Of a stretch of 64,000 nt of DNA, positions 3,180-64,000 are shown in pieces. Where the stretch lies: positions 32,001 through 96,000 of the IMG/VR virus record IMGVR_UViG_3300045303_000182; one strand, given 5' to 3'. Position numbers and translations under genes: made by a program. How positions within the stretch are numbered: the first letter of the stretch is position 1; each line of letters starts with the position of its first letter. This DNA is from a virus. The notes beneath the pieces were generated by a model, which did no database searches, was not told the origin of the DNA, and saw only the letters and a list, made by a program, of their open reading frames with translations.

Positions 3180-4118
3180 GTGACAATGCACGCAGTACTT
3201 GGCGACGGAGACATGACCCGTCGAGAACTCACAGAGACGCTTGCCGATCTGTGGAAGAGCGATGAAGCCGAGGGCCAGAGCTTCTGGTTCCTCGTTCAGG
3301 GCAAGAGCGAGCCGACCGACACCGACAAGGCGTTGGTGACGTGGCTGGAGAAGAACGAGATCTACTACGAGGTCGTCACCGACGACCCGGAGTCGATGAG
3401 CGAGATCTACACCGCGCCGCAGGAAGTCCACACGGCGAAGAAGCTGTCGCAGAAGGTCGTCGGCCTCATGCAGTCCAAGCCCGAGGAGGGCGAGACGGCT
3501 GAGGTGCTGGCGCTGTTCTTCGACACCAACGACGTGACCGCTGCCGAGGACCGCTGGCTCAACGGCGTGATCCAGGCGGCGTACGACGGCGGCTTCGCGA
3601 CGCGGGCACTCAACGACGGGCTGGTCGAGATCGATCTGTCCGAGGGTGCGGCTGAGCCTGAGCCTGAGGAGAAGCCCACGCCGACCAAGGCCGTGGCGAA
3701 GAAGGCGGTCGCCAAGAAGGCTGCTGCTCGGCCCGCCCCGAAGCCCGATACGGAAGAGGCCGATACCGAGGTACCAGCAGAAGTCGAGGCAGAGCTCGAG
3801 GAGCCGCCGGCAACGCCTGCCGCCTCGGTCCCGACCCGCGAGGAGTTGGAGGAGATGGAGCCGTCGGAGGTCAAGGAGGTCGCCGCTTCACTCGGCATCG
3901 TCCTGCCGCCGCGGACGCGCGCCACCACCTACATCGACCACATCCTGGGCGAGGCCAAGGCCCCGGCTCCGACCGCCGAGGTCAGCGAGGTGCCTGAGGT
4001 GGCCGAGGTGGACATCGTCTCGACCAACGGCCACCTTGATGCCGACGCCCTCGCTGAACGGGTTGCCGACATCCTGTGGGAGCGCTGGAGCGAGCGGCTC
4101 ACCAAGGCGCTCGCCTGA
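3180..4118 (+). CDS. Hypothetical protein: possible degenerate SLOG-like N-domain, PAKK/acidic linker, Rho-N/HeH-like domain
   Basis: 312 aa ORF with AAGGAG RBS; KAVAKKAVAKKAA; REELEEMEPSEVKEVAASLGI. Confidence 0.6.
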   Translation: MTMHAVLGDGDMTRRELTETLADLWKSDEAEGQSFWFLVQGKSEPTDTDKALVTWLEKNEIYYEVVTDDPESMSEIYTAPQEVHTAKKLSQKVVGLMQSKPEEGETAEVLALFFDTNDVTAAEDRWLNGVIQAAYDGGFATRALNDGLVEIDLSEGAAEPEPEEKPTPTKAVAKKAVAKKAAARPAPKPDTEEADTEVPAEVEAELEEPPATPAASVPTREELEEMEPSEVKEVAASLGIVLPPRTRATTYIDHILGEAKAPAPTAEVSEVPEVAEVDIVSTNGHLDADALAERVADILWERWSERLTKALA

Positions 4119-4217
4119 GTGCCCAAGGAGAAGCTCTCACCGAAGGGTGAAGTCATCCTCATGGCATCGATGGTGCTGCTGCTAGCAGTCATCATCTTGG
4201 GGTCACGTTGGATGTGA
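4119..4217 (+). CDS. Putative 32-aa single-pass membrane peptide
   Basis: GTG immediately after the previous stop; MPKEKLSPKGEVILMASMVLLLAVIILGSRWM. Confidence 0.4.
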   Translation: MPKEKLSPKGEVILMASMVLLLAVIILGSRWM

Positions 4218-4230
4218 TAGTCTCCCGTCC

Positions 4231-4479
4231 GTGACAGCGGCGGGCGCGGTGGTTGAGGGGCTGGCAGCGGGTGCGCTGGCTTCGTGGGTGGTGGTGGAAG
4301 CCACGATCCTCTGGAAGGGACGGGTACCAGTTACCTTCGACCACCGCACCCGCCGCTGGCGCTCAGTGCGAGCGATCAAGAAGGAAGCCGCCATGCGGAA
4401 CCCGCCTGCCGTCTACCCGATGAGTCACGTCAAGCCCGAGCCGACTCGGCTCCATGTCGTACGTGACATAGCCTCCTGA
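4231..4479 (+). CDS. Hypothetical membrane-associated protein
   Basis: 82 aa ORF; TAGTCT-7nt-GTG leaderless promoter. Confidence 0.55.
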   Translation: MTAAGAVVEGLAAGALASWVVVEATILWKGRVPVTFDHRTRRWRSVRAIKKEAAMRNPPAVYPMSHVKPEPTRLHVVRDIAS

Positions 4480-6495
4480 TCACCCCCAGGGGCTAACGAC
4501 TCCGTCCGGTGTTCCCGTTGACCAGTACGGCAGGATGCCTGCCGCCTTGGGAGGTAAGGGGTTCTGAGCGTCGAACGGATAGAAGATGTCGAGGTGCGGG
4601 ACCACGGTGATCCCCGCCGGCACCCAGCGGTAGACCAGACCCTGCTCTTCCATGTCCTCGTCGGTGACGTTCTGCGAGGGGTCGTTGGGATCGACGGTGC
4701 GAGCGAACAGACGGCCCGTCACAGCCTTGCGGTGGTTGTACCAGAGGCTGTAGGTCTGGCCCTGACGGTTGCTGCCGCCGTACCAGGAGAAGTCGTCGCG
4801 TGCCCCGTACTTCTCGTCGCCGTCGAAGTACAGCCAATCCTTGAGGTAGCCACGCTCGGCCAGCACACGGTCGATGGTGAGCAGGTCACCCTGTAGCTCG
4901 AGGCGCACCATCGCGATCGCTGCCTCGGGCGCGCGTCGGTGCGTGGCGACGTGGGTCCACGCACCTGCTGCCAGATCCCACGTCTCGTCGTCGCCCCAGT
5001 CCACGGCCGTCATGCGGTAGTCAGCGTCCCAGTAGACGAGTCCCACCTTGAGCTTGCCGCTGCCCTTCGCCATCAACTGCACGGTCCACTGCTCACTGTT
5101 GAGCTCGCCCAGCAGCGTCGGGAAGATGTTCGACTCCATGACGACGTACCCTGGCAAGGGACCGGTCTTCGGTGTGATAGCCGAGGCAGAACTGAGTGTC
5201 CAGGTACGGCCGCGGGGATCGATGTAGCTGGTGCCGGTGCCGGGGTAGTCGCTGGCATCGAACTTCCAGATCACCGTGCCCTTGGCGGGATCGAGGCCAG
5301 TGCGAAGCTCGACGGAGTAGATGCGCCCGTTCCAAGCGTTGACCCCGTCGTAGCCACCGATGCTGACGGGTGATGACGCATCGGCCAGTGCCATCGTTGG
5401 TGCTGACGCTGTCGCTACCTGCGTCCACACCCCTCCCACGGGATGGAAGGCCGTCAACTGCATCTGACCCGCACCGTCGTCCAGGTCGAGAGACATGGCC
5501 CACGTCTCATCGATCGACGTGGTTGCCCCGAGAGTGACACCGGATACTGCCGACGGGTAGGTGCCGACAGCAGTCGTCGCACCCAACTGGAGGGTTCCCG
5601 AGGGGAACCGTCGCTGCAGGAACCAGGATGCGTTCCCCGCAACCGTCTGAGCAGCGACAGTGTGATACCCACTCCGTGTGAACGGACCCTGTGTCTTGAA
5701 GACGAACGTGCATTCGCTGGGCAGTGGCCCTGGGTCGGGCGTCGTGACGGTGCCAACCGTCGGCGTCAGGTAGCCGGGAGAGTTCCCACCGCAGCTACCG
5801 GACCACGCACCCGAGCCAGGTGCGCCTCCCGAGACGCGCGCGAGCGCTGAGCTACTCGACCAGAAGTTGGTGCCCGGTGCTTCGAAGCTCGGGTTGGCGA
5901 TCATGTTGGCGCGCTGCGGGTAGAGCCAGGCGTGCTGCGACCCGCTGACTTCGAAGTCAGGAGAGCCGCGCGACAGGACGAGCGGTCCCTCGGTGGGGTC
6001 TGGTGCTGTCGTGGACCAGCCGAACAGCCAGCGGTTGGTGGCGTCGGGGAACGTGGAGTCCGGGCTAGCCGTGAGCGCGTCATCCGGTGCGAGGTTGGTG
6101 ACACCGTTGACCGGCGTGTTGGTCACGAAGATCAGCGGCTCGTTCACACCGCCAAGCGCTGCGACGCGCACGATGGCGATGGCACGGATCTCGGCCGATT
6201 CCAGAAGCTCGGTGAAGCGGTAGTCGGAGAACATCACGTAGCGCGACCCACCGAGAACGCGCGTTCCCACGTCCAGCAGGAGGTCCATCGGATATCCCGA
6301 TATGGAAGTGACCTCTACCCACCCCGGACTCGAGGCGATGAGTTCGGGCACGGTCTTGGCAGCAGTCCACGCCGAGTTGGGGTAGCCCATCGCCGGGGCG
6401 TAGCGGAAGAGCACGACCTTGATCTTCTGACCATCCATGATCCCCTGGTTGGCTTGCAGCGCCTGACGGAAGTTGTCAGTGAAGAAGTAACTCAT
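4480..6495 (-). CDS. Baseplate/tail receptor-binding protein with carbohydrate-binding and LamG-like domains
   Basis: 671 aa; NMIANPSFE (CBM-type start), SIGGYDGVNAWNGRIYSVEL (LamG-like), YFDG; last gene of the baseplate operon. Confidence 0.7.
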   Translation of the reverse strand: MSYFFTDNFRQALQANQGIMDGQKIKVVLFRYAPAMGYPNSAWTAAKTVPELIASSPGWVEVTSISGYPMDLLLDVGTRVLGGSRYVMFSDYRFTELLESAEIRAIAIVRVAALGGVNEPLIFVTNTPVNGVTNLAPDDALTASPDSTFPDATNRWLFGWSTTAPDPTEGPLVLSRGSPDFEVSGSQHAWLYPQRANMIANPSFEAPGTNFWSSSSALARVSGGAPGSGAWSGSCGGNSPGYLTPTVGTVTTPDPGPLPSECTFVFKTQGPFTRSGYHTVAAQTVAGNASWFLQRRFPSGTLQLGATTAVGTYPSAVSGVTLGATTSIDETWAMSLDLDDGAGQMQLTAFHPVGGVWTQVATASAPTMALADASSPVSIGGYDGVNAWNGRIYSVELRTGLDPAKGTVIWKFDASDYPGTGTSYIDPRGRTWTLSSASAITPKTGPLPGYVVMESNIFPTLLGELNSEQWTVQLMAKGSGKLKVGLVYWDADYRMTAVDWGDDETWDLAAGAWTHVATHRRAPEAAIAMVRLELQGDLLTIDRVLAERGYLKDWLYFDGDEKYGARDDFSWYGGSNRQGQTYSLWYNHRKAVTGRLFARTVDPNDPSQNVTDEDMEEQGLVYRWVPAGITVVPHLDIFYPFDAQNPLPPKAAGILPYWSTGTPDGVVSPWG

Positions 6496-8456
6496 GTGGA
6501 CCTCATGTCGCGCTGCGACGAGCCGATGACGAAGCCTTCGAAGCCTGCCTTCGGCTCACCCAGCTTCTCAGACGGGTCGCCCAAGGTGAGATAGCGATCA
6601 GGAGGCGTCACCGAGACAACCGAGTTCTCGTCACCGAGGGGGTAGACCATGGCCGCGGCCACGTCGATCGCTGCCGAACGCTGGACGGTGGTGTGCGCGA
6701 CGCGGTCGAAGATGTAGATGGCGGGGATCAGGTACCGGGCCTCAGGGAGGGTGCTGGTCTTCACCGGGGCGAGGCCCTGGCCGATGTACTGCTTCCACGC
6801 TGTGCCGCTGGAACCTTTGGGGATCCCGAGTGACACATCAATCACCTCGTCCACGTCACCGGACGGACCGATCCAGATGAGCACGGCCTGCACCGTGAAG
6901 TTCTTCTCGGGTGCCTGGACCCACACACTGAACCCGTAGGGCACGCCGGCGGTGATGGAGATGCCACCCGTCAACGGGATGGCATCGCGATACTCAGCCG
7001 TAGCTGGCGGCAGGATGTCGTCCCCTGGCCGAAGGATGGTGTCGGGGTCATCGCGGATCCGAGCGTCACCACAGGTGATCAACAGGTTGCTCAAGCCTTG
7101 GGCCTTCGTCGTGTACACACGCATGACGCCGCGGCCGGTTGGAGGAGCCACGTTCACGCGTCCAACGTAGATGCTGCTCCAGTCGAGCGAGGTCAACGAT
7201 GGCTCCTGGGCAAGTACCGGTGGCAGAGCCTGGGGGTGAACGCCGCCCCAGTTGCCGGTCGAGTTGAAGAAGTCGCTGTCGTCCGGGAACAGCACCAGCG
7301 TCTGACTGCCGGTGACCTGAGTCTCGTACTTCGACACGGCCTCGATCACCTGCCGCAGGCCGACGGCGGTACCTCGAGTGTGCTGAGCGTTGGGGGCGTT
7401 GGCTACCAGTCCGCGGTACCGGATGTCTCCGATGCCCGCCTCGTAGGGCAGCCCGTAGTTGGCACCCAGGCCCTTGAGCAACGGCATCGGCGTCTTGTCG
7501 ATCTGGTGCAGGTCGAGCACGCCCTCCACGAACTCGCGCGTGTTGTCCATCACGAAGCCGAAGACGTTGAGGAACTGGCGCAGGTGACCGGCACCGATGC
7601 GGTAGTTGTCATCGACCCACTGGTGATACGGAGGGACGCAGTCCCACATGCGCTCGCGGTGATGGAAGTCCCGCGGCAACAGGCATGAGTCACTCATCCC
7701 GACGATCCAGTCGATGGGCGTCGTGCGGAAGAAGAGCGTGTAGTAGAACGTGCGCCCGTTGGGGACGAAGCCGGTGTCCCAGCCATCCCCGACCGGGATC
7801 CGGGTGGGCAGCGGGTGGTCGTAGACGACAGGCGGTGGACCCAGCACTGGCTCGTCGTCCTCGGACATGAAGTCGGCGCGCAGCGATCGGAAGATCGTCG
7901 TGCCGTCTCGCGGTGTCGAGGGATGGCCGAACGTCGAGCGCACCAGTGCCACCTCGGCCCACTTGTCGGCGTACTGGACCGGCCAGCCCCACAGGATCTC
8001 GATCGTGTTGTAGTCGAAGGGCCGAGCGAAGAGGATCGCTGGCGCGATGTCAGGGTCGTATGGCTCAGCCGCCGTACTCGGATATCGAAGGGCGGTATGG
8101 GGCAGGTCTGTTCCCGGCCCGATGTTGACCCAGGCGGTGCCGTCCCAGCGGACGATGTGACCAGTCTTCGCGGTCACCACCGCTGGCATGATCGGGTTGC
8201 CGTTGCCGTCAAGCTGCGTAGGCGGCGGTTGCCACGACGGAGCGTTGCTGGGGATCGGAGTCCCCAGCAGCCATGACTCATTGGTGCGATTGAACGCATC
8301 CGCGGCGGGGATGACCGGCAGTGTCCCACCGTTGAGCGTGCCTTGGATCTGAGAGGTCGCGCGAACCCAGTCGCCTCCCACAGACGTGCTGTAGGACTGG
8401 CGCTTGACGCGGAACGCCGGGAGGTCGTACCCCTCAGGCCACCAAGTGTCGGTCAT
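6492..8456 (-). CDS. Baseplate wedge/tail protein (P2 gpI-like)
   Basis: LRQFLNVFGF...LLKGLGANYG...RGTAVGLRQVIEAVS; follows the baseplate J gene. Confidence 0.75.
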   Translation of the reverse strand: MTDTWWPEGYDLPAFRVKRQSYSTSVGGDWVRATSQIQGTLNGGTLPVIPAADAFNRTNESWLLGTPIPSNAPSWQPPPTQLDGNGNPIMPAVVTAKTGHIVRWDGTAWVNIGPGTDLPHTALRYPSTAAEPYDPDIAPAILFARPFDYNTIEILWGWPVQYADKWAEVALVRSTFGHPSTPRDGTTIFRSLRADFMSEDDEPVLGPPPVVYDHPLPTRIPVGDGWDTGFVPNGRTFYYTLFFRTTPIDWIVGMSDSCLLPRDFHHRERMWDCVPPYHQWVDDNYRIGAGHLRQFLNVFGFVMDNTREFVEGVLDLHQIDKTPMPLLKGLGANYGLPYEAGIGDIRYRGLVANAPNAQHTRGTAVGLRQVIEAVSKYETQVTGSQTLVLFPDDSDFFNSTGNWGGVHPQALPPVLAQEPSLTSLDWSSIYVGRVNVAPPTGRGVMRVYTTKAQGLSNLLITCGDARIRDDPDTILRPGDDILPPATAEYRDAIPLTGGISITAGVPYGFSVWVQAPEKNFTVQAVLIWIGPSGDVDEVIDVSLGIPKGSSGTAWKQYIGQGLAPVKTSTLPEARYLIPAIYIFDRVAHTTVQRSAAIDVAAAMVYPLGDENSVVSVTPPDRYLTLGDPSEKLGEPKAGFEGFVIGSSQRDMRST

Positions 8457-10681
8457 GTGCCCAGCAGCCCTCCGTCAGCGATCACCCACAACCCATCGTG
8501 CATGCGCTCATCCTCATCGATGTCGGGGTAGTCCACCTCGCTCTCGGGGAGGTTGACGGTGGCGACCTTGCCGGTCGGATCGAGCGTGACCTCAGTCAGG
8601 TTGCCGGCGGTCTTGGCGTAGGTCAACGTGGTCGCCAGTGGCGTGGCGACGATCACGTACTGTCCGTTGTACGTCGTCGGCGTCACAGCGGTCACCTCGA
8701 TCGTCTCACCAGGGAGCATGTTGTGAGCCGCCGTCGTCGTGAGCGTGACGACGTTGGCGGTCAACGACGCCTTGAGAACGTTGGCCGTCTTGATCGGTGG
8801 GTAGGGCGTGATGCGCGGGATCAGAAGCTCGTCCGTCTCAATGTCCTCCACCCCTCCGAGCGAGTCAGGTGACGGCGTGTAGCGCAGCACCGAGAAGGCC
8901 ACGTCCTTGTTGTTGCCCGGTGGATTGACGACGGCGGCCTGATCGATCTTGGCGACGGCCACCTGGAACCACGTCGTGTTGTTCACCGGAGCGGCGGTGA
9001 CCACGAAGCTCATCCAGGAGTTGGGGTCGCCTACCGGGCTGTAGACGATGTGGTCACCGACCTGGATGCCAGCGATGTTGGGCTGAGCACCCGTCTCGTC
9101 GGTGCGCGAGAAGGCGAAGGCCGTCGGGTTGGTGGTGTTGTTGCGCCGGTAGTCCCCGTTGCCAGGGTCAGCCATCGTGGTGTTGGTGTCGTCGCGATAG
9201 GTGGTGCGGGCAACGGTGATGGTGTCACCATTGGACGGGTCGGTGTCATCGACAGGCTCGGTGGTGCTGAGCCAGGTGAGCTCGCACCACTCCACGCCCT
9301 GCACGGCGAGTGCCGAACGATAGATCTGGCCGATCGATACGCGGGTACCGAAGTCCACGTTGTCGAAAGCGAGCACCTGGCGGATGGTGGCATCAACAGC
9401 CGAGCGCACAGCACCACGGTTGTAACCCTTGGAGACGTGGACCTGCACCTGGATGTACACGTCCTGCCAGAGATCGTCCATCGTCTCTGGCTCGGCGTAG
9501 ACCGTCGAGCCGATGATCACCTTGTCGGACATGTAGTCCTCGACATCGGCGCACAGCCTCACCATGTACTCATCGGTGCCCTGACCCCCGGTCGGTGCGA
9601 TCTTGACCCGCACAGCGGTGTACACGGTGCCGTGAGCGACGCTCTTGGCGACGCCCGGTACCTGCAGGGCCATGTCGGCGTAGTCGTGCAGCGTGATCGC
9701 CCGGTTCTTGATGCGCGCCGCGGCGCGAGGGATCGACTGGCGCATGGCGTCGATCGACTCCGGGTCAGTGCCACCGACAGGGTTGTTGGTGTTGGTCACC
9801 GAGACACCCCACCAGTCGTCACCGCTGTCGTTGACGACGGTGTTGATCGCTCCGGGACCGAGCAGGTTGGCCTCGGCCCCCACGCCGTAGCGATAGGTGA
9901 TGAAGATCTCGGCGTTGACCGGAGGGATGCGGCCCGAGGCGTTGTCACCGAAGACGATGTGCGTCAGATCCTGATCATCGCGGAACGTGGTGAACAACGG
10001 CTGCGTCGGCCGAGCCAGCGAGAGGTTGGCGATGTAGGTCCACTCCACCAACTGCCCACCCTCACGCGAGGTCACCGAGATGGAGCCGTACACGATGCCC
10101 TTGTCGGGGATCACGAACTCAGTGTTCGGTGAGCCAGAACAGATGCCAAGAAGCCGGTCGTGCTGCACGATGCCTTCGGTGGCGTAGCCGGTGACGACGA
10201 GGATCTGCGGGTCCACCGTCGGGTCGAGGGTGACCTCGAGGTCCGTCTCGAAGACGATCAGATCGTCAGCGTTGCTCGCAGCGTTGTGCAACCGCGTGCC
10301 CTTCGGGATCGTCACCTTCTCCGTGGCGTTGGCGTTGATCGAGAACTCCAGCGTGACGGACGCTGACTGCTGGCCGATCGGTGTATAGCCAAGCATGTTG
10401 GCGATGTACAGCACGCTCTGCTGACGCAGGGCCGAGCCGAGGAACGCCTCGCTGGCTGTGCGGTCGATGTAGAAGTGCATCACGTCGCCCATGTAGGCGA
10501 AGATCTCCAGCAGCAGGGTGCCCATGTCGCTGGCCTCACCTGCCGTCTCCCACTCGGGCATCAGACCCTTGGCGAGGCCGACCAACTGGCTGCGGATGGC
10601 GGTGAAGTCACGGCTGGTGTAGTCGAGGACGACGCGGGAATCGATGTCCTGGTCTTCCAGTTGAGCGAATGCGTCGGGCAT
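8453..10681 (-). CDS. Baseplate wedge J-like protein (T4 gp6-like)
   Basis: DYTSRDF, SDMGTLLLEIFAYMGD, IVFGDNASGRIP, GGTDPESID, RAITLHDY. Confidence 0.92.
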   Translation of the reverse strand: MPDAFAQLEDQDIDSRVVLDYTSRDFTAIRSQLVGLAKGLMPEWETAGEASDMGTLLLEIFAYMGDVMHFYIDRTASEAFLGSALRQQSVLYIANMLGYTPIGQQSASVTLEFSINANATEKVTIPKGTRLHNAASNADDLIVFETDLEVTLDPTVDPQILVVTGYATEGIVQHDRLLGICSGSPNTEFVIPDKGIVYGSISVTSREGGQLVEWTYIANLSLARPTQPLFTTFRDDQDLTHIVFGDNASGRIPPVNAEIFITYRYGVGAEANLLGPGAINTVVNDSGDDWWGVSVTNTNNPVGGTDPESIDAMRQSIPRAAARIKNRAITLHDYADMALQVPGVAKSVAHGTVYTAVRVKIAPTGGQGTDEYMVRLCADVEDYMSDKVIIGSTVYAEPETMDDLWQDVYIQVQVHVSKGYNRGAVRSAVDATIRQVLAFDNVDFGTRVSIGQIYRSALAVQGVEWCELTWLSTTEPVDDTDPSNGDTITVARTTYRDDTNTTMADPGNGDYRRNNTTNPTAFAFSRTDETGAQPNIAGIQVGDHIVYSPVGDPNSWMSFVVTAAPVNNTTWFQVAVAKIDQAAVVNPPGNNKDVAFSVLRYTPSPDSLGGVEDIETDELLIPRITPYPPIKTANVLKASLTANVVTLTTTAAHNMLPGETIEVTAVTPTTYNGQYVIVATPLATTLTYAKTAGNLTEVTLDPTGKVATVNLPESEVDYPDIDEDERMHDGLWVIADGGLLGT

Positions 10682-11091
10682 CAGATCTCTCCAATCGGAA
10701 TCGCGCGCTGCCGGTTGAAGAACTCAGAGGCGAGGGGCACAGCGATCTCAGCGTCAGTGGCGTACAGCGCCGGCCGATACACCACTTTGATAGTGACATA
10801 CGCCGGTTCGGGGTCGTCGGCGGTGAGCGTCACGCTACGAACGATGGCACGCGTGACCAGTTGCTCCAAGCGACGCTTGATCTGACCGGCAGCATCGCGA
10901 CGTACGAGCTCATCGGTCGGGTCGAACAGCGCAGCCTGGATGTCACATCCGTAGCGCGGACGCATCACCCGCTCACCGAGGTTGGTCATCAGGGCGTCGA
11001 TGACCTGGCCGCGCACGATCTGTGCGTAGTCGGTCGTCTCTGCGAGCTTGCCACCCGGAGCCAGCGAGAAGGGCCAGAGGAAAGCTCTCAT
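10681..11091 (-). CDS. gp25/GPW-like baseplate wedge (sheath initiator)
   Basis: Start MRAFLWPF at 11091 (ATGA overlap); LMTNLGERVMRPRYGC. Confidence 0.9.
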   Translation of the reverse strand: MRAFLWPFSLAPGGKLAETTDYAQIVRGQVIDALMTNLGERVMRPRYGCDIQAALFDPTDELVRRDAAGQIKRRLEQLVTRAIVRSVTLTADDPEPAYVTIKVVYRPALYATDAEIAVPLASEFFNRQRAIPIGEI

Positions 11092-12371
11092 GATGCGATG
11101 GTCCTGACCGTGGCGTTCGACCACGACGACACCCACACGTTGGTGCTGGCCGAGGGAGTGTCGATGATGGTCGGCCACTTCTCGATGGACGACGGCAAGA
11201 TACCGATCGAGTTGACCGGCTGCAGCATGTTCATCGTCTGGCTCAGGGTGAGGACGGGCTTCGACTTCCCCAGCGACTGCCAGAAGGGCACGTAGCCACC
11301 CGTGAAGACCTGGGTGGTGCCATCGGGCCGAGCGAGCGCCAGGTTCGACTGGTAGCTCTGGCGGTCCATCTTGTGCTGCACCGCACGGACCAGCCAGCGC
11401 CCGTTGAACTTGCCGGTGTAGTACTTCGCGTTGGTCGTCATCACCTCGACGGTCATGCCGGGGTAGAGCGCAGCGTTGCCCATGATCCGAGCCTTGGCCG
11501 TCTGCGCCCACCGAGACGAGTCACTGTCCTTGCTGTTGACGTAGAGGCTTGCCTCGCTGGCGTCACGGATCACGAAGTCGGTGAGGAAGCTGTAGTTGGA
11601 GTGGTCGCCCTTCTGCAGGGCCACCTGCATCTGGTCGTTGTTGAAGTAGGCGACCTTGTAGCCCTGCTGCTCGACGCTGCTCTCGGCCACCTCGGTCGGG
11701 TCGAACTCGAGGAGCACGCGCTCTTCGTCCATCGATGCCTTGGCGAGCGTGTACGTCTCGGAGATGAGCGTGGCGGCGCTGCCCTGGTCGCGGAACAACT
11801 GCAGCGGGTCGTAGAGCAGCACGATCCCGTAGCGGTTGAACACCGACCACCCGAGCCGCGTCGCCAGCTTCACCGCCATCTGCCAGTCGCTGCTGTCGGT
11901 CTGAGCCAGCGCAGGCCATAGGTGGGTATGGGCGTGCCCCGCGTAACCGAGGTACGAGACGTACGTCAACGTCTCGACGGCGCTGGGGATCGTGCGCTGG
12001 GTCCAGAAACGAGGGTTGCCCGTCTGCATCGACTTGGTCGGACCGGTCATGCTCATGGTCCACGTCAGCGTGCCCGACTCGTTCTGCTTCTCAGCGACCG
12101 CGATGACGTAACCGCAGAAGACCTCGGTCTTCGGGGCGAGGCCGAAGAGGAACGAGATCGGCTGCTCCAGCAGGCCCGCTGTGGTGGTGCGCTCGGTCGA
12201 GGACACCGTCATCTCCACGGTGTCGTGCATGTTCTCGCCCATCATGATGGAACAGTCCTGGACTGTGACATCCAGCGGCTCCCCGGCGAGCATGATGCGG
12301 TAGATCGGCGTGCGCCCTCGGGTGTTGCGCCCGCTCGTCTGCGGCGAGCCGAGCATGTCCATCATGCTCAT
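11088..12371 (-). CDS. Baseplate hub (late control D / gp27-like)
   Basis: QTDSSDWQMAVKLA, GNAALYPG, GRWLVRAVQH. Confidence 0.85.
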   Translation of the reverse strand: MSMMDMLGSPQTSGRNTRGRTPIYRIMLAGEPLDVTVQDCSIMMGENMHDTVEMTVSSTERTTTAGLLEQPISFLFGLAPKTEVFCGYVIAVAEKQNESGTLTWTMSMTGPTKSMQTGNPRFWTQRTIPSAVETLTYVSYLGYAGHAHTHLWPALAQTDSSDWQMAVKLATRLGWSVFNRYGIVLLYDPLQLFRDQGSAATLISETYTLAKASMDEERVLLEFDPTEVAESSVEQQGYKVAYFNNDQMQVALQKGDHSNYSFLTDFVIRDASEASLYVNSKDSDSSRWAQTAKARIMGNAALYPGMTVEVMTTNAKYYTGKFNGRWLVRAVQHKMDRQSYQSNLALARPDGTTQVFTGGYVPFWQSLGKSKPVLTLSQTMNMLQPVNSIGILPSSIEKWPTIIDTPSASTNVWVSSWSNATVRTIAS

Positions 12372-12703: not shown

Positions 12704-14280
12704 CAGGCGCTACTTCCCCCGCCCCCGCCACCGTTGTAGCCCGACGCCTGGGCCGCAGAGCCGGTGGCACCGAGTGGTGTGGGTCGGATGAGATGAGTGA
12801 ACTTGCTGGTGCCAGTGACACCGCGCTCACCTACCTCGGGCTGCGAGGTGGTCGAGGCGGCATCGAACACGATGCACCCGCCCTCCTTGTAGCGCACGAA
12901 GAAGGCGGTGTGCCCAGGGCTACCGGGGCGGATGAAGATGTCGCCGGGGAGCAGGTCGGTCTGCCAGTTGATCGAGGACAGTGGGACGTAGATGCCGTTG
13001 TTCTTGTTGATGCTGCTGGGCATCGAGGCCGTGCCGGGGTTGCTGTTCCAGCCCATCGTGGTGCCGTGACCGATCGCCTTGTACGCCTGGGTGACGAGGC
13101 CCGAGCAGTCAGCCGACTTCGGCAGGTCGAAGCGCGCCGACCAGTAGTTGGGTGTGCTCGACGGGGCGTAGTTCGTCCACCCTGGGTCCATCACGTTCTT
13201 CGCACCGGGGCCACCCTGATGCGTGTTGTCGTAGGCCCACTGCAACGCCTGCAGCCTGATCTTGTGGTTGGCGTCGTTGGCCTGCCCAAGCTGGCCGGTG
13301 TACTGCACGTTGCCCGAGTCCACCCCGCCAGGGATGCCGGCGGCGTCGTCGGCCGCGCGCTCGACCTCTTCGAAGGTGATGTCATACACCGTCGCCTTGA
13401 AGTCATCGATCGGGATGGCCTCCTCAGCTATCAACTCCTCCTTCTTGTACTCGACCATGTCGCGCACGGGGCCGAAGTAGGAGGCGAGGATCTGCAACTG
13501 GATCCGCATGCGGATCGGCGTCATGCGGTGGGTGAACTTCTCGAAGACCACCTGAGCGTTGGTCGGCCGACCCTGCACCGTGATCATCGGTGAGAACACG
13601 ACGGTGATGTCGCGTGGGTTGACCATCATCACGCCGTTGTCGGGGAGTGTGTTATTCGACTGGGCCGGGTCGTTGGGGATGACGTTGCGGACCACCATGT
13701 CGAAGAACTGGTAGTCCACGAAGACGCCGGGGTGGTCGGGGTCGGCTGCTGCCTCCTCCTGCCGGTCGAAGAAGAGCTCGAAGGAGAAGTTGAGGATGGA
13801 GGGCGGGGCGATGGCGTTGCCGCTCTGGTACACGGTGTTGAACGGGTCGAGCGCCGACTGCTCCAGGTAGCTCACGTACTCCCGCGTGATGATCTCGGGG
13901 TTGTACATGAAGTAGAGACGGCACTTCGACAGGTCGTCCTTCACGTCGTACTCGGCACGACGGATGTAGCCGCGCAGGATCCGCGCTGGCCCCCCGTCAG
14001 GGCCGAGCAGCAGAGGGTGCAGCCGACCTGCTGCTCCACTCACGAAGGGAGGGTTGACCAGACCCTGTGCGCCTGTGAAGCCAGCGGAGCGATCGCCCGA
14101 CTGGAACCACTCGTAGGCGAACTGCTGACGCAGCGCGTCGGTCGAGATGTTGGTCTGGTGGTCCACCCACTGGCTCGGCACGTCGGCCGAGGAGTACGTC
14201 TGGCCGCGCGCCCACCCGTAGGCGTGCGGGGTCAGTTGCGCTGGCTTGTAGCTGTTCTTGATCCCGTATTGGTATGCCAT
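12700..14280 (-). CDS. Tail tube initiator fused to an NlpC/P60 peptidase
   Basis: FMYNPEII..FSFELFFDR tube-initiator motifs; C-terminal ADCSGLV...LLPGDIF...GHTAFF. Confidence 0.8.
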   Translation of the reverse strand: MAYQYGIKNSYKPAQLTPHAYGWARGQTYSSADVPSQWVDHQTNISTDALRQQFAYEWFQSGDRSAGFTGAQGLVNPPFVSGAAGRLHPLLLGPDGGPARILRGYIRRAEYDVKDDLSKCRLYFMYNPEIITREYVSYLEQSALDPFNTVYQSGNAIAPPSILNFSFELFFDRQEEAAADPDHPGVFVDYQFFDMVVRNVIPNDPAQSNNTLPDNGVMMVNPRDITVVFSPMITVQGRPTNAQVVFEKFTHRMTPIRMRIQLQILASYFGPVRDMVEYKKEELIAEEAIPIDDFKATVYDITFEEVERAADDAAGIPGGVDSGNVQYTGQLGQANDANHKIRLQALQWAYDNTHQGGPGAKNVMDPGWTNYAPSSTPNYWSARFDLPKSADCSGLVTQAYKAIGHGTTMGWNSNPGTASMPSSINKNNGIYVPLSSINWQTDLLPGDIFIRPGSPGHTAFFVRYKEGGCIVFDAASTTSQPEVGERGVTGTSKFTHLIRPTPLGATGSAAQASGYNGGGGGGSSAW

Positions 14281-46662: not shown

Positions 46663-46725
46663 ACGGGCCTCCTGTTAGCTGGCTATGGACGGAGCATAGC
46701 CCTATACCACGACCTGGCTGAGGTA

Positions 46726-51967: not shown

Positions 51968-52214
51968 CGCTCTTCCTTCCCCACGCTCCGATCTGATTCG
52001 GATCGACCTCCAGGCCCCATGGTGTCACAGTGCTCTTGTACCGGCAGGTGCCGATGTGCAGCCAATGCTTATGTGATACCCGGATACGGAATGCGAAGGT
52101 CGAGTAGCGATAGGGGGGTAACGCCTCCTCCATCGTCGCCTTGGTCAGGAAGGACCGGTCCTGGGCGTCGCGCTCGACACCCCAGTAGATCGGCACGCCG
52201 CGTATCAGGATCAA
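51795..52214 (-). CDS. Hypothetical protein (3' end overlaps the next gene by 173 nt)
   Basis: TTGA overlap with the GNAT stop; EEALPPYRYS. Confidence 0.5.
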   Translation of the reverse strand: MILIRGVPIYWGVERDAQDRSFLTKATMEEALPPYRYSTFAFRIRVSHKHWLHIGTCRYKSTVTPWGLEVDPNQIGAWGRKSDGPEEEAAEEFPTPEQVRSLREGRPDRHAGSGDDEERGDVPGAESLGTGPGVGAVSA

Positions 52215-54439: not shown

Positions 54440-54847
54440 CTACCGACCGGAGGCACCACGTTTGAACGCACGAACATTCGATGTCGCAGCCTTCTTCGGC
54501 GCGGTCTTCCTGACCGGTGCTGCCTTCTTCGGAGCGGCCGTCTTGCGCGGCGCTGCTGCCTTCCGCGGCGCTGCCTTCTTCACCGGCCCCGACGCCTTGC
54601 GGGTCCGCGCCCTCTGAGCGCGGACCTGTTCGGCGCGCTGGTACGCGATCAGGGCCTGACGAAGCTGCCAGTTCTCAGCCTGTAGCCGCTGCACGAAGAT
54701 CAGGTGGTTGTAGAACTTCGGCTCGGTCATGACGAGCACGACGGAGCGCGCGACAAGCTCGGTGACCACCTGCTCCAGGTTGGGTGGCACGCGGCCGTGG
54801 ACGAACGCCTGGACGTGCCTCATGAGGTCGTCGCTCTCTTCGCTCAC
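54440..54847 (-). CDS. Protein with histone H1-like PKKAA tail
   Basis: KKAAPRKAAAPRKTAAPKKAAP. Confidence 0.65.
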   Translation of the reverse strand: MSEESDDLMRHVQAFVHGRVPPNLEQVVTELVARSVVLVMTEPKFYNHLIFVQRLQAENWQLRQALIAYQRAEQVRAQRARTRKASGPVKKAAPRKAAAPRKTAAPKKAAPVRKTAPKKAATSNVRAFKRGASGR

Positions 54848-55746
54848 GGCTTGGTCACGTACTCCTGCTCCACGACACCGAACGAATCATCGCCGCGAAG
54901 GTGCTGTGGAATCCAGAAGCGGCCCTCGATCTTGCCGAACAGGAGTCCTTTGCCGTACTTCGGTCCGTACTCGGAGAAGTGCCCCCGGACTGAGCTCAGA
55001 GGACTCGAGGGCACCTGAGAGAGCGGAACGCCCATACCCCGATACGAGCGTGATACGGGCTTGATGTGGATCTCGTTCACTGTCACACCCGTGCGCGACA
55101 ATCGCCGTGCGACGGGTCTGCTCCGGGTCGGCTCGGCCACCTGGACGTTGACGCAGTTGCACATGTTGAAGGTGTCGAGCATGACCATCATCGCCGTGTC
55201 CCACAGCGTCGCGTCGAGGTCCGGGCGCACCTGGATCCAGTTGAGGTCCGCTATCTCACCGTCGGGGTAGATGGCGACACGCCACAGGTGCAGCGGCCCC
55301 TGGGTCCGCACGTACTCGCCGCCACCGCGCCCGCCCATGTACACGACGACGTGCATCACCCAGCGCACGCGGTCCCACTCGATGACGTGGGTGTCAGCCA
55401 GCGAGTCCCAGTACTCGATGACCTTCGGGTCGATCCGGTCGTTCTCCTCCTTGCTGGTGAGGTCGATCGTGCGCGCGCTCATCACGGTGACGTTCTCGAA
55501 ACCGTTGACGTAGCAGATGAGGGCGTTCTGCCACGGCGGGCAGATGCGGTGGTCCTCGTAGATCTGCCCGCCCTGCTCGCTGCTCATCCAGCGGTCCCAA
55601 ATGGCCGTGGAGTCCACCACGGTGGCCCACTTCGTCAGAAGGGCTGTGTCCTTGTTCAGGGTGTCACCGGGAGCGTCGTCACGCGGGTCGTAGACGTTCC
55701 CCATCCTGAGGTCACGCACGACCTTGGCGATCGCCTCCGCGCTCAT
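54844..55746 (-). CDS. Hypothetical phage protein (VRGH motif)
   Basis: 300 aa; SVRGHF..LFGK..FWIPQHLRG. Confidence 0.7.
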   Translation of the reverse strand: MSAEAIAKVVRDLRMGNVYDPRDDAPGDTLNKDTALLTKWATVVDSTAIWDRWMSSEQGGQIYEDHRICPPWQNALICYVNGFENVTVMSARTIDLTSKEENDRIDPKVIEYWDSLADTHVIEWDRVRWVMHVVVYMGGRGGGEYVRTQGPLHLWRVAIYPDGEIADLNWIQVRPDLDATLWDTAMMVMLDTFNMCNCVNVQVAEPTRSRPVARRLSRTGVTVNEIHIKPVSRSYRGMGVPLSQVPSSPLSSVRGHFSEYGPKYGKGLLFGKIEGRFWIPQHLRGDDSFGVVEQEYVTKP

Positions 55747-56951: not shown

Positions 56952-57057
56952 CCCGTATCGGGATACCAGCAGAAGTGCGTGACTAGCGCTCGAGCTCTCT
57001 GGGGGGCCTGTGACCAGGGGCGATGCGTTAACGGCCCAGATAACGGGTTTCGCGGAA

Positions 57058-57134: not shown

Positions 57135-57308
57135 TTATGAACCGAAGGGGTTGCGCTGACCGGGGGTGACGTGGTCGCGCTCCTCGGTCCAGGTGTGCCC
57201 GATCTCGTTGTCAACGAGGTGGTCGCGCATCATCGTGAGCGCGTCGCACAGCCCAGCCAGGCGCTCGTCGGCCTGGCCGATCTCGATGTCGATGTGCCAG
57301 CGGATCAT
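57135..57308 (-). CDS. Small hypothetical protein
   Basis: 57 aa MIRWHIDIEIG...; ATGA overlap. Confidence 0.5.
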   Translation of the reverse strand: MIRWHIDIEIGQADERLAGLCDALTMMRDHLVDNEIGHTWTEERDHVTPGQRNPFGS

Positions 57309-57676
57309 CGCTTCACCCCGGCTTCCTTGAGCACGGACGCCGGCACACCCTCTTCACGCCAGTCGGCGTAGATCAGGCCGTGGCGCTCGCTGTAGGAGGC
57401 GCAGTGCTCGATGAACGCGCGGACGAGGGACGAGTTGTCGCTCGACTCTTCCGCCTGGGCCTCGCGAAGCAACGGACGGAGCTTGAGACGCTCGATCGGA
57501 TCCGTGGCCTCAACGAGGGCCTGCTGGAGGTCTTCGGCGGTCCTGCGGCGGGGACCGCGGCGCGGGACGGGGACTGCCTGGATCGACTCCAGGTACAGAC
57601 GCACTGCTCGGGACTGAACCATGGCGATCGACATCGCACTCGGTTCTTTGGGGGTGTCAGCCTTGGGTTTGGTCAT
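57305..57676 (-). CDS. Putative DNA-binding protein resembling a conserved Acidimicrobiia protein
   Basis: AVRLYLE..RRGPRRRT..DPIERLKL..YSERHGLIYADWREEGVPASVLKEAGV. Confidence 0.6.
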   Translation of the reverse strand: MTKPKADTPKEPSAMSIAMVQSRAVRLYLESIQAVPVPRRGPRRRTAEDLQQALVEATDPIERLKLRPLLREAQAEESSDNSSLVRAFIEHCASYSERHGLIYADWREEGVPASVLKEAGVKR

Positions 57677-58137: not shown

Positions 58138-58517
58138 GTCTGGAGCCTTGGGTACTTGCGGAGGAGTCGGTCCACAGTCTCAAGCGCCGCAGCGCTCGGT
58201 TCCTCGATCTCCTCTTGCCCATGGTCTGCTGCCTCGTTGCCGGAAGCGAACAACGGTACGGTCGCCTCGGGGATATCGGGATACCCCACGACGCGTAGCG
58301 AGATGAGGTCGAACTCGTTGCCGCGGGAGGTATGCACGACGGCCCAGCCGTGACAGAAGTGCTCCGGGGTCGCGTGGCAGGCGAAGTACGCGAAGGGCTG
58401 CTCGGGCGTGATGTTGTCGTACTCGCGCAGCTTCTCGTACTCATGGTGCGCCCACAGGCCGCTGGGAACGTCACAGCGGTACGGGCAGGCACTACAGGGC
58501 TGTGAGCGGACCTCCAT
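58134..58517 (-). CDS. DUF6283-like Cys-rich protein
   Basis: PCSACPYR..W..EY..FACH..CHGW. Confidence 0.7.
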   Translation of the reverse strand: MEVRSQPCSACPYRCDVPSGLWAHHEYEKLREYDNITPEQPFAYFACHATPEHFCHGWAVVHTSRGNEFDLISLRVVGYPDIPEATVPLFASGNEAADHGQEEIEEPSAAALETVDRLLRKYPRLQT

Positions 58518-59644: not shown

Positions 59645-60121
59645 TCAGGAATCCTCCTCAGCCTGAGCCTCTTCCAGCGCGCGTCGCAGAGCGAGCCGCT
59701 CCTCCTCCTCTTCGTGCTCGGCCATCCAGTCCTTGAGCCTCTGGAGGTTCGCCGGGGTCAGCGGGCCTGCTGGGAAAGCGAGATCAAGCTGATCGAAGGC
59801 GAGCACAGGGAACCACGCCCAATCTCTCCCTTCCCATACCCCGATACGGTGCGCGGCCTGGTCGTACTTGAGCGTGCCCACCTCGAGGAGCTCAAAGATC
59901 CGCAGTGCCTCCTGGATCTCGCGCGACCGATGAGGCTTCATCTCGATGTAGTACTTGCCGTCCACGAAGTGGACCGGGAAGCCCTCGGGTTGGCCGAGGG
60001 CACCACCGAACTGCTGGGGACTCAGGTGGGGGCTGCGGTGGAGCGCGGCGCGGTCGCCGCGCTCCCGTAGCTCATCCATCGTCGCCTTGGGGATCTCAAC
60101 CCAGGACGGATCAACGGTCAT
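59645..60121 (-). CDS. Hypothetical protein
   Basis: 158 aa; contains HLSPQQF. Confidence 0.6.
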   Translation of the reverse strand: MTVDPSWVEIPKATMDELRERGDRAALHRSPHLSPQQFGGALGQPEGFPVHFVDGKYYIEMKPHRSREIQEALRIFELLEVGTLKYDQAAHRIGVWEGRDWAWFPVLAFDQLDLAFPAGPLTPANLQRLKDWMAEHEEEEERLALRRALEEAQAEEDS

Positions 60122-61590
60122 GCCCGCCGGCGCTTCCTCCCTACCGAGAAGAGGGCGAGGCCCGAGCCGAGGGCGAGGGCAGCAATAGCGAGGTAGGTGC
60201 CGCTGTTGCTTCCGGTGGGTGGCAGTCCCTCGGGCGGGGGCGTGACCCCTGGCGGGAACGGCCCGTTCGGATTAGCGCAAGTTGCGCTCTCCGGTGGGTA
60301 GGTGACGAAGGCCGTAGCCGTCGGGTTGACCGTGTAGGTCAGGTTGATGCCGGCGCGGAGGAACTCGTCGCTGGGGTCGCGGATCCAGAAACCATCGCTG
60401 GTGAGGATCCAGCCAGGCACGTCAGCGATGGTTCCATCGCTGTTCACGGTGGTACCTGGGTACAGCAAGTCCACGGTCGTGCCGGGGGCGTAGACCAGCG
60501 GTTGGGTCGAGACGACGTTGCCGTTGATGTCCGACATCGTCAGCGTCCCAGTGCGACCGGCCAACTCGGGGAACGTGTTCTGGAAGACGATCCTGATCGT
60601 CGGAACCTCAGCCACGCAGACTGTCGCCGCGGCTCCGAACGTGAACGGTGGGGCTGGCACCGTCGTGGTAGTGGTCCCAGGGATCGTAGGCCCAGTCGTG
60701 GTGGTCCCAGGGATGGTGGTGGTGGTCGTTGTGGATGGCGAGGTCGTCGTCGTCGGCCCAGTCGTAGACGTGGGTGGCACCGTCGTCGTCGTCGGCGGGA
60801 GCGTCGTGGTCGTCGGCGGGAGCGTGGTCGTCGTCGTCGTTGATGTCGTCACCGCCGTGGTCGTAGTGGTAGGTGGGCAGTTCGGTGGGAAGGTCACGGA
60901 GGCCGTTGCTGTCTCCGGGCCGAGCGAGTAGATCAGGTTCACGTTCTGCGTCGTGTTGGGGTAGGCGATCGTCACCGTCTGGTTCGACTGGAAGGTCAGG
61001 AACACCGACCCGCCCGTGCTGAACGACAGCACTCCGACCTGACCGTTGAGGTCAGGCCGATCACCGAAGGTGATCGAGATCTCGGGCAGGAAGTCGGGAC
61101 CGCAGAAGGCGAACACGTTGACCGCGAACAGGCTCGGCTTCGGAGGCTGGGTCGTGCTCGTCGTGCTTGTGGATGACGTTGTGGAAGTTGTGGATGACGT
61201 ACTGGTCGAGGTTGTGGAACTCGAGGTCGTCGTCGTCGGCTTCATCGTGGTCGTCGTGGTCGGGTACGGCTTGTGGGTCGTCGTGGTCGCTGGCAACGTC
61301 GTCGTCGGAGCAACGGTCGTGGTCGTCGTCGGGTAGGTGTGCGGCGGCTTCTCCGTCGTGGTCGTGTCGTGCTTGTACGTCGTCGTCGTCTCGTACGGCT
61401 TGTGGGTGGTGGTCGTCACCTCCCGCGGCTCCGTCGTGGCAGTGGTCGTCGTGTAGTTCTGCGTCTCGACCTGCACGACTTGCTCGACCGGGGCTTCATC
61501 GGGCGGCTGCGGCGACTCTTCGGCCATCACTGCAGGCACTCCACATGCCGCTAACACCAGGAGGCCCAGTAGCCCCAGTCGCCTGATCAT
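60118..61590 (-). CDS. Sortase-anchored (LPxTG) Thr-rich surface protein
   Basis: Signal peptide; poly-Thr stalks; two related domains; LPPTG + TM + RKRRRA. Confidence 0.85.
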   Translation of the reverse strand: MIRRLGLLGLLVLAACGVPAVMAEESPQPPDEAPVEQVVQVETQNYTTTTATTEPREVTTTTHKPYETTTTYKHDTTTTEKPPHTYPTTTTTVAPTTTLPATTTTHKPYPTTTTTMKPTTTTSSSTTSTSTSSTTSTTSSTSTTSTTQPPKPSLFAVNVFAFCGPDFLPEISITFGDRPDLNGQVGVLSFSTGGSVFLTFQSNQTVTIAYPNTTQNVNLIYSLGPETATASVTFPPNCPPTTTTTAVTTSTTTTTTLPPTTTTLPPTTTTVPPTSTTGPTTTTSPSTTTTTTIPGTTTTGPTIPGTTTTTVPAPPFTFGAAATVCVAEVPTIRIVFQNTFPELAGRTGTLTMSDINGNVVSTQPLVYAPGTTVDLLYPGTTVNSDGTIADVPGWILTSDGFWIRDPSDEFLRAGINLTYTVNPTATAFVTYPPESATCANPNGPFPPGVTPPPEGLPPTGSNSGTYLAIAALALGSGLALFSVGRKRRRA

Positions 61591-63182: not shown

Positions 63183-63358
63183 GACTCAGAAGCTAGCGAA
63201 ATCCCTAAGCGATCCGAGCAGCATTTGCCGGCGCTCGAGGGATCCGCCGGCGTGGGATCCCCCTTCTGCCCATATCGCCATATCAGCCGCACCTCCAACA
63301 CGGCTCCCCCGCCTACATGCCGCCTCAACTACCCGCGTTGGGGTGGTGACGCGAAGAA

Positions 63359-63378
63359 GCCCCCGCCGTAGCGGGGGC
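63359..63378 (-). terminator. Rho-independent terminator
   Basis: GCCCCCGC-4nt-GCGGGGGC followed on the minus strand by TTCTTC, 17 nt after a stop codon. Confidence 0.7.
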
Positions 63379-63395
63379 CTCTCGCCTGAGGACGG

Positions 63396-63839
63396 TCAGG
63401 CCGGTGTGGCGACGTGGCGCGTCGGCGCTGTCCGCGTCGCCCGATGAAGAGCCGTCTTGCCCTTCCCCGAGCGCTTGTTCGAACCCGGCTTCACGCCCGC
63501 ACGCGCTCCCAGCTTGCGCGAGGCCGGTGGCGGCGTCAACTTCACCTTGTACCCGCACGGGAACGCCCCCTGCACGTCGAACTCCTTGATCAGCGCACGG
63601 TCGTTCTTGCTCAGGTCGTAACGCACCACCGTGTCGGGATCGTTGGAGAAGGTGACGTACACCTTCGACGCTCCGACCGACACCGTGGCGACGCCCTTGC
63701 TGCGCCGCATCGACTCAGCAATGGCGCAGTGCGCCGGATCCGTGGGGATCGCCCTGCTCACGTCGGCCGCCGTGATCTCCGTGGACAGGTTGCGGGTGGC
63801 GTCCTTGACGGTCACCCCGTTCATCTTGATGGCTGGCAT
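63396..63839 (-). CDS. Basic hypothetical protein
   Basis: Start MPAIKMNG after AGGAG; DPAHCAIA. Confidence 0.65.
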   Translation of the reverse strand: MPAIKMNGVTVKDATRNLSTEITAADVSRAIPTDPAHCAIAESMRRSKGVATVSVGASKVYVTFSNDPDTVVRYDLSKNDRALIKEFDVQGAFPCGYKVKLTPPPASRKLGARAGVKPGSNKRSGKGKTALHRATRTAPTRHVATPA

Positions 63840-64000
63840 GCTTGCTCCTACTCGTTGTAGTGGACTCCGAGAGCGCACCCTACATGATGTGTCACGTCGA
63901 GCGCAACGCCTGCTCAGAGGAGCCATCCATGGCCTCCACGCACGGATACGCGGATACCCGCTTATCACTGCTTCATAGGTCCGTATGGGACTCGCTACTA

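Follow-up and report, generated by a model that had tools for sequence, protein, structure and literature searches.

We show that the genome of a soil phage carries a dispersed palindromic DNA site, with RTAYC-N2-GRTAY at its core, in numbers far above chance both between genes and inside them, and that the word of this palindrome is kept, retuned or replaced among the relatives of the phage. The DNA under study is the IMG/VR record IMGVR_UViG_3300045303_000182 (109,846 bp), of which record bases 32001-96000 form the stretch that we analyzed (64,000 bp, hereafter the window, to which all positions refer unless stated otherwise); the genome of this study phage is called G000, and G001-G005 are the complete or large related genomes that we compared with it. 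An earlier note on the window had drawn attention to the palindrome and had proposed that a dimeric protein binds it along the chromosome. We consider it probable that a two-fold symmetric protein, probably dimeric and most likely phage-encoded, docks on double-stranded DNA at the palindrome, with proposed roles in the control of promoters and/or the organization of the chromosome.

Using dinucleotide shuffles as a reference, we observe that the 12-mer RTAYCNNGRTAY is present in 15 exact copies in the window, compared to 0.15 on average, and never more than 2, in the shuffles. All 15 coordinates given in the earlier note are correct; the GC content that it put at about 66% measures 64-65% (64.8% for the whole record). 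The whole 109.8-kb genome contains 24 exact copies. Of these, 14 lie fully inside genes, compared to 0.44 (maximum 3) when codons are permuted within genes and 1.91 (maximum 5) in synonymous shuffles that keep every protein. The codon-preserving shuffles proposed as a check on the palindrome therefore leave the in-gene copies far outside their range, and the choice of codons is thus biased toward preserving the site. The unusual codons read earlier at 6292 and 23465, and the 16 bases shared by the stretches starting at 55031 and 59833, are likewise present as described.

A blind search of all gapped degenerate palindromes placed RTAYC-N2-GRTAY at the top of the ranking for the genome (z = 31). 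Examination of the flanks and of near-misses demonstrated that the full site is wider and looser than the 12-mer, and is best written as the 16-mer Y-S-R-T-A-B-C-N-N-G-V-T-A-Y-S-R, with 28 exact copies (0.2 expected) and 32 copies with one mismatch (5.2 expected). This corresponds to about 55 real sites in the genome, or approximately one per 2 kb, with 29-30 of them in the window. The five one-mismatch copies of the 12-mer named previously (8074, 9337, 41297, 63272 and 63946) are real, and we found 13 more in the window.

Because the 16 bp of the site have two-fold symmetry, no orientation can be defined for it. Analysis of the four variable pairs of the 16-mer demonstrated that the two arms are complementary as often as independent halves would be (observed/expected 27/28.6, 25/29.4, 28/27.7 and 22/21.1), with no covariation, i.e., no compensatory changes, at any of the four pairs; therefore the site is not an RNA or cruciform hairpin. 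Independent variation of the arms is instead the pattern produced by a protein that reads two degenerate half-sites. At the central dinucleotide, CG and GC are avoided (10 observed, 21 expected). We regard it as extremely improbable that the palindrome is a structural nucleic-acid element of this type or a target of restriction-modification or methylation. A palindromic form would suit either, G000 encodes a C5 cytosine DNA methyltransferase, and some copies in G001 enclose a GGAG Shine-Dalgarno sequence just before an ATG. However, the lack of arm covariation largely refutes a structure, and a 2-nt centre is unable to form a loop; the methyltransferase is found in G000 only and lacks homologues in the motif-sharing relatives, and phage genomes are normally poor in enzyme targets, whereas this site is enriched 100-fold.

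The placement of the sites along the genome is also far from random. Six tandem pairs are present with their members 21-23 bp apart, i.e., two helical turns, where 0.22 pairs would be expected, and this spacing suggests cooperative binding of two dimers. With pairs collapsed, the gaps between sites are more even than chance (coefficient of variation, CV, 0.65 compared to 0.97 for random placement, P = 0.0004), and a looser pattern points the same way in G000, G001 and G002 (CV 0.74-0.81). Sites are enriched approximately four-fold outside genes, with 28 of 60 not fully inside a gene in a genome where non-coding DNA makes up 11%. There is a single long site-free stretch, of 6.9 kb (window ~26.9-33.7 kb), and the region 26900-33700 contains three large open reading frames (ORFs) that score low as coding sequence and are rarely or never matched in relatives; this suggests recent acquisition of the DNA. 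In a subset of sites, the palindrome is immediately preceded on its 5′ side by the flank CTTCT[GC]C (49657-49665, 56967-56975, 3775-3783 on the minus strand and 63263-63271 on the plus strand), and at three of the sites flanked in this way another palindrome, GAGCTCGAG-like, lies 20-30 nt farther outward.

The study phage is a contractile-tailed phage (a myovirus of ~110 kb), with genes for a tail sheath and a baseplate J protein, an SPP1-type portal and a T4-type terminase large subunit (TerL), and with nearly all genes running leftward; CheckV completeness of the record is 93%. It also encodes a C5 cytosine DNA methyltransferase (L101:3449-4660, + strand), a Ku homologue (L101:9313-10194, - strand) and a dCMP deaminase (61920-62324, - strand). 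The closest named phages are those of the Streptomyces BRock/LuckySocke group, with a TerL identity of only 46%, and since BRock contains no copies of the dispersed palindrome and LuckySocke three, they are useless for conservation tests. IMG/VR contains hundreds of uncultured relatives closer than this group. TerL of G001 and G002 is 79% and 76% identical to that of G000, and direct terminal repeats are present in related genomes. Near-identical DNA is present in several soil metagenomes, and among the variants listed from four soil metagenome runs on window 44-64 kb, none of 40 falls in a site (~0.3 expected; 469 more variants were found), a result too thin to be informative.

Our comparison of the related genomes shows that, within one lineage, the word of the palindrome has been retuned or has given way to another. 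A TAY-N4-RTA core is common to relatives with TerL at least 69% identical. The top palindrome of G001 and G002 is GATAY-N4-RTATC, with the same core and register as in G000 and with the emphasis shifted from the inner C/G to the outer G/C. Counts of SRTAY-N4-RTAYS are 37 in G001, 21 in G002 and 14 in G003 (controls 3, 2 and 1), compared to 4 in G004 and 0 in G005 (controls 4 and 2). In the more distant G005 (118 kb, L108-L113) the motif is absent, and we instead find 25 dispersed copies of GYTRT-N-AYARC, mostly GTTGT-N-ACAAC (control 1), a palindrome that is nearly absent from the other compared genomes. G003 (L090) additionally contains seven copies of TGTGA-N6-TCACA at 24873-29162 and 38613, four of them within 90 bp, in an early-gene region; this word is the consensus of CRP-family regulators. 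An ACCGG-N5-CCGGT signal in G003 was rejected as a binding site, as it is the coding sequence of a collagen-like repeat.

The positional conservation in relatives that the earlier note had asked for is present in part. Intergenic sites are largely syntenic, for example in the gap after the portal gene, in the gap before the terminase gene and in several others. Inside genes, the codons CGT ATC CGG GTA TCA at nt 127 of a 139-amino-acid gene are identical in G000, G001 and G002, with the orthologous proteins of G001 and G002 being only 45-46% identical, but most in-gene copies have turned over, with approximately 10 of 33 retained. The three site-rich genomes (G000-G002) nevertheless keep a density close to one site per 2 kb. 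Positional retention, together with a steady density despite turnover, seems to reflect selection on key positions and on overall density.

Steady density and even spacing are also what a system for handling DNA might show, with the sites serving condensation, partition, packaging or nuclease protection in the manner of parS/ParB, Noc or RacA, and with a protein carrying a histone-like tail perhaps reading them. The phage encodes two basic proteins with AKKA/PRKA tails, and RacA, which has a MerR-like DNA-binding domain, organizes DNA from dispersed palindromes (PMC4914108). We nonetheless judge this very unlikely, because no ParB_N domain is encoded, because the four-fold excess of sites in non-coding DNA and the fixed promoter positions point to transcription, and because the tailed 135-amino-acid protein (54440..54847) is missing from G003, which has sites. 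The parS-like reading offered in the earlier note thus falls with the missing ParB_N domain, and nothing links the sites to packaging, which it had also suggested.

The clearest promoter position is that upstream of the terminase gene, where the site is followed by 4 nt, the hexamer TAGAGT, 7 nt and a GTG start codon, with no Shine-Dalgarno sequence. If this GTG is taken as +1, the 16-mer spans -31 to -16 (centre near -23.5), an arrangement that looks like a leaderless promoter; TAGAGT is taken as the -10 element, no convincing -35 element is seen at this promoter, and most other sites are placed differently. The order of site, 4 nt and TAnnnT upstream of TerL is kept in seven related contigs with one or two site letters changed, and the flanking DNA is otherwise unalignable across these contigs. 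If the site lies between the -35 and -10 positions in this way, a bound protein could switch transcription of the terminase gene on or off. At the right genome end, outside the window, we identified five copies of a long conserved promoter-like element, consisting of GCGTGTTGGTTTCTGCTAGCAC, then 5-6 nt, then TAnnnT (L101:6590-12320, genome 100.6-106.3 kb), with CACCTACCAC located ~20-30 nt beyond TAnnnT. These elements precede the SNF2 helicase, DUF6011, Ku, AAA_5 and 777-amino-acid genes, and in four of the five the palindrome, or a variant longer by one base, is located 0, 1 or 6 nt upstream of the element. A protein docked there, directly upstream of the -35 element, may likewise act as a transcription switch.

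Several sites overlap other signals. The G001 sites at 13422, 24285 and 51765 (L083-L085) read GATACGGAGGTATC, with an ATG within 2-3 nt and with the free 4-bp centre holding the Shine-Dalgarno sequence. A terminal peptide tag, RKRxIPR, overlaps a DNA site (genome 18150-18173, window 49830-49860): at the C-terminus of a resolvase, ATA-CCT-CGA-TAC codes for I-P-R-Y (genome 18150-18173), and a GATACC half-site falls within the tag upstream of the terminase gene. In relatives, the gene that precedes TerL bears the same tag.

Pfam and PHROG scans of ~120 ORFs identified few DNA-binding proteins. The best candidate reader of the sites is a MerR-type winged-helix protein of 148 amino acids (genome 26662-27108, - strand) with matches to Pfam MerR and MerR_1, the only MerR_1 match in a six-frame scan of the genome. 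It lies ~5 kb to the left of the window, in agreement with the earlier view that no cognate protein is evident within it. Its gene belongs to the core set of the lineage (306 homologues). Its AlphaFold2 (AF2) model (pLDDT 77) shows a winged helix-turn-helix and a C-terminal helix, the top Foldseek matches of the model are all MerR-family proteins with weak E-values (6e-3 to 0.2), and homodimer prediction gave a score of 0.24 compared to a mark of 0.42, which counts neither for nor against a dimer. In our survey of genome pieces from 57 distinct relatives, those where the recognition helix starts [G/D/E]-Y-[S/T]-x-x-[S/A] contain the motif at 1.3-5.8 per 10 kb (controls ~0.1), and in every piece where it starts [G/N/S]-[K/R]-x-x-V-T the motif is at control level. 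For example, L160, which is of the Y class and has a MerR-like protein 52% identical to that of the study phage, contains 8 sites in 13.7 kb, and L157 and L159, of the R class and 53% identical, contain 0 and 1. We therefore put this MerR-like protein forward as a candidate binder, an assignment that we make tentatively.

A number of observations weigh against a phage-encoded, MerR-like reader acting at promoters. Phylogeny confounds the link between helix class and motif, which could come down to a single split and is hence a lead and not a proof. The recognition helix is identical in G000, G001 and G003, yet site density in G003 is about one-third, and G000 and G001 prefer different flanking letters despite this identity. 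G004 encodes a MerR-like protein and has no clear palindrome of its own, and the candidate has a C-terminal helix that falls short of the coiled coil in canonical MerR dimers. The places of the sites also vary, with positions at ~-46, at ~-23, overlapping a possible -10 element or a start codon, in 5′ leaders and in mid-gene, and consequently no single promoter geometry or transcriptional mechanism covers all copies. A scan of window 44-64 kb for sigma-70 consensus promoters and terminators gave no more matches than chance, so that our promoter assignments rest on reading by eye. Finally, the binder could be a host protein, such as an actinobacterial global regulator or nucleoid-associated protein recruited by the phage, with the motif differing as hosts differ. 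This would account for the lineage-wise change of motif, the cognate phage protein is only a candidate, and most phage proteins have no recognizable family. We consider a host binder unlikely, since the motif is finely retuned among close phages (inner C/G in G000, outer G/C in G001 and G002), is replaced by a wholly different palindrome in G005, and tracks in its presence the recognition helix of a phage protein; a co-evolving phage factor fits better with this retuning and tracking.

Other phage proteins were considered as binders. The product of 1788..2738, a winged-helix replication initiator with HTH_36/MarR_2/RP-C-like similarity, occurs in G000-G002 only, i.e., it is confined to the site-rich genomes. 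In its G001 and G002 orthologues, the region encoding the linker contains one or two overlapping sites beside hairpins, and an origin of replication is likely located inside the initiator gene, as the lambda ori is inside gene O. The sites could thus be iteron-like, read by this protein in the manner of lambda O, with the dispersed copies being secondary sites that tie replication to gene control. This is quite unlikely in our view: the linker-coding part of the G000 gene (2300-2425) has hairpins and GTAC-type units at a different spacing, but no canonical site; G003 has 14 sites and no detectable initiator homologue; and 55 evenly spread copies are unlike origins.

Among the candidates named in the earlier note, the initiator and the basic 135-amino-acid protein of 54440..54847 are possible binders without specific support, and neither 57305..57676 nor 3180..4118 has a Pfam match. 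The 135-amino-acid protein is found only in G000-G002 and gave no PDB or Atlas lead, and the 123-amino-acid protein of 57305..57676 gave no PDB or Pfam lead and has no homologue in relatives. The former (- strand, isoelectric point, pI, 11.6) and an otherwise unrelated basic protein (genome 2008-2484, + strand, pI 10.5) share Ala/Lys/Pro-rich tails with PKKA and AKKA repeats, which resemble the tails of histone H1 and mycobacterial HupB. P0001 (HTH_38/HTH_7/Mor-like, genome 102763-103107) is a real helix-turn-helix protein, but is an unlikely binder because it has no orthologue in any relative, and a ribbon-helix-helix (RHH) protein of 71 amino acids (genome 27946-28161) was rejected as it is found in G000 only. 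None of the proteins present in G000-G003 and absent from G004-G005 has a Pfam match, and the 100-amino-acid protein among them has no Atlas match.

Taken together, we propose that each half-site, Y-S-R-T-A-B-C, would be read independently, with half-site centres ~10 bp apart, and that the single MerR-fold winged-helix protein of the phage may be the reader. The in-gene copies, which turn over at steady density, could act as distributed roadblocks or nucleation points, and one protein would in this way control or organize the whole chromosome. The dimeric-protein site of the earlier note fits with the independent halves, the tandem pairs, the enrichment in non-coding DNA, the synonymous constraint and the retuning, with binding itself being what we infer. 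We further suggest, as a speculation that is rather unlikely to hold in full, that a MerR-fold protein of an apparently lytic phage has turned from the switch of a single operator into a genome-wide reader of ~55 sites, docking at times as paired dimers, that times or organizes expression, with site and recognition helix retuned together. The sites and related features of the window are listed in Table 1.

Table 1. Palindromic sites in the 64,000-bp window, with the genes and signals discussed in the text
Feature	Position	Strand	Remarks
Replication-initiator-like gene, winged helix	1788..2738	-	rival candidate binder
Variant site	3740..3751		16-mer with one mismatch; tandem pair with 3763, 23 bp apart
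Exact site	3763..3774		inside gene 3180..4118(+)
Exact site	6292..6303		inside gene 4480..6495(-); codons ATA TCG GGA TAT
Variant site	8074..8085		gene 6492..8456(-); near-site at same codons in G002
Variant site	9337..9348		baseplate J-like gene 8453..10681(-)
Variant site	11918..11929		gene 11088..12371(-); identical 12-mer at same codons in G001
Variant site	14382..14393		close to 3′ end of gene 14280..17123(-)
Variant site	17932..17943		gene 17261..18091(-)
Exact site	21322..21333		gene 20696..21424(-), 91 nt from gene start
Exact site	23465..23476		mid-gene, 23010..23942(-); codons GAT ATC CCG ATA
Variant site, RTAGC half	25208..25219		gene 24641..25486(-); same-codon sites in G001 and G003
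Variant site	25923..25934		overlaps ribosome-binding site and ATG of gene 25496..25924(-)
Variant site	26878..26889		last before the 6.9-kb site-free stretch
Variant site, non-coding	33750..33761		tandem pair with 33771, 21 bp apart
Variant site, non-coding	33771..33782		second of pair with 33750
Variant site	34488..34499		gene 33861..34604(-); same-codon site in G002
Exact site, intergenic	36526..36537		17 nt before GTG at 36508; just upstream of AGGAG ribosome-binding site
Exact site, intergenic	39543..39554		between portal gene and next gene; same gap in G001 (11017) and G002 (44815)
Variant site	41297..41308		close to 3′ end of gene 41232..42080(-)
Exact site	41705..41716		gene 41232..42080(-)
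Variant site, intergenic	46675..46686		13 nt upstream of start of gene 46300..46662(-)
Terminase large subunit gene	48026..49627	-	downstream of conserved site
-10-like hexamer TAGAGT	49635..49640	-	putative leaderless terminase promoter; sequence read directly, function predicted
Exact site	49645..49656		directly upstream of terminase large subunit gene; place conserved in relatives
Exact site	49818..49829		8 nt after RKRVIPR-coding end of upstream ORF; extra GATACC half-site within RKRVIPR codons
139-amino-acid gene	51795..52214	-	carries positionally conserved in-gene site
Exact site	52076..52087		inside 139-amino-acid gene 51795..52214(-)
135-amino-acid basic protein gene	54440..54847	-	PKKA/PRKA histone-like tail, pI 11.6; rival candidate binder
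Exact site	55034..55045		gene 54844..55746(-), 187 nt before start of next gene
Exact site, non-coding	56955..56966		CTTCTGCTG flank
Exact 12-mer	58273..58284		outer flanks do not fit 16-mer; ~50 nt upstream of ATG
Exact site	59836..59847		frame 1 of gene 59645..60121(-); 16 bases in common with copy at 55034
Exact site	60452..60463		490-amino-acid gene 60118..61590(-)
Variant site, non-coding	63272..63283		CTTCTGCC flank on + strand
Weak copy	63946..63957		12-mer with one mismatch

A similar density of dispersed sites is seen in the stoperators of Cluster A mycobacteriophages (L5 gp71 and the TipsyTheTRex repressor), which are asymmetric 13-14-mers read by a monomer and oriented with transcription (PMC9283540, PMC6550527). 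Both have dozens of copies, approximately one per 2 kb, in genes and gaps, and with the proposed reader they would also share one protein acting genome-wide and the co-evolution of site and protein. An immunity network of this type, in which a prophage repressor silences the genome in a lysogen or carrier state, could explain the density of the sites and their presence in both genes and gaps (PMC9283540, PMC6550527), and had been raised in the earlier note. We find it highly improbable for the study phage. Cluster A stoperators are asymmetric and oriented, and the phages that carry them are temperate, having an immunity repressor and an integration or partition module. The site here, in contrast, has two-fold symmetry, and a search for lysogeny genes was negative: six-frame scans of the 93%-complete genome identified no tyrosine integrase (Phage_integrase), serine recombinase (Resolvase) or ParB_N domain. 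The phage is moreover a myovirus of ~110 kb whose relatives have direct terminal repeats.

For the proposed reader, the closest comparison is with MerR-family systems. The mer operator of Tn501/Tn21, TCCGTAC-N4-GTACGGA, is located at -32 to -15 (PMC11049809). Like the palindrome, it has two arms of 6-7 bp around a 4-bp centre, the site consensus Y-S-R-T-A-Y-N4-R-T-A-Y-S-R fits its letters, and the terminase site would share its location between -35 and -10 if the GTG is +1. However, MerR regulators normally have one or few operators, whereas here there are 55 sites, most of them not at promoters; no promoter with a 19-bp spacer and a good -35 element is visible, and the MerR-like candidate has no long coiled coil or sensor domain. 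RacA of Bacillus subtilis, which has a MerR-like DNA-binding domain, organizes DNA from 25 dispersed GC-rich palindromes, the ram sites (PMC4914108). In the lytic mycobacteriophage D29, the MerR-family repressor Gp36 tunes genes in both arms of the genome (PMC12266134). RacA is a cellular protein with ram sites clustered near the origin, unlike the phage sites, and Gp36 binds GC-rich direct repeats, its mapped site being one repeat pair in one region (PMC12266134). Neither has detectable sequence similarity to the candidate beyond the fold, and by analogy they are precedents that a MerR fold is able to do such jobs.

The closest known system is the 17-bp dyad repeat of the Cluster O mycobacteriophages (Corndog and its relatives), TGTTCGG-NNN-CCGAACA, which occurs in 34 copies, partly in genes, and is proposed to bind a dimeric regulator (PMC4351075). 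As here, it is a palindrome present in more than 30 copies in an actinobacteriophage, in short gaps and in genes. Its copies are mostly at conserved places among relatives, compared to the largely syntenic intergenic sites and the approximately one-third of in-gene sites kept here. It differs in sequence and spacing, in belonging to siphoviruses of Mycobacterium, and in having invariant arms where the half-sites here are degenerate, and even spacing, tandem pairs and retuning along a lineage are not reported for it. Corndog, like the study phage, encodes Ku. Because its function and binder are not known, the Cluster O repeat offers no mechanism to borrow, and the array described here is a further case of dispersed palindromes of this type, already known and unexplained. 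What our analysis adds is the constraint on synonymous sites, the independent half-sites, the paired sites, the even spacing and the density kept despite turnover, as well as a word that is retuned or replaced along a lineage and a clonable 148-amino-acid candidate whose recognition helix tracks the motif. If the assignment is true, this protein would be the first named binder for dispersed palindromes such as those of Cluster O and would bring with it a testable mechanism, and the co-retuning of site and helix would span a large lineage of uncultured soil phages.

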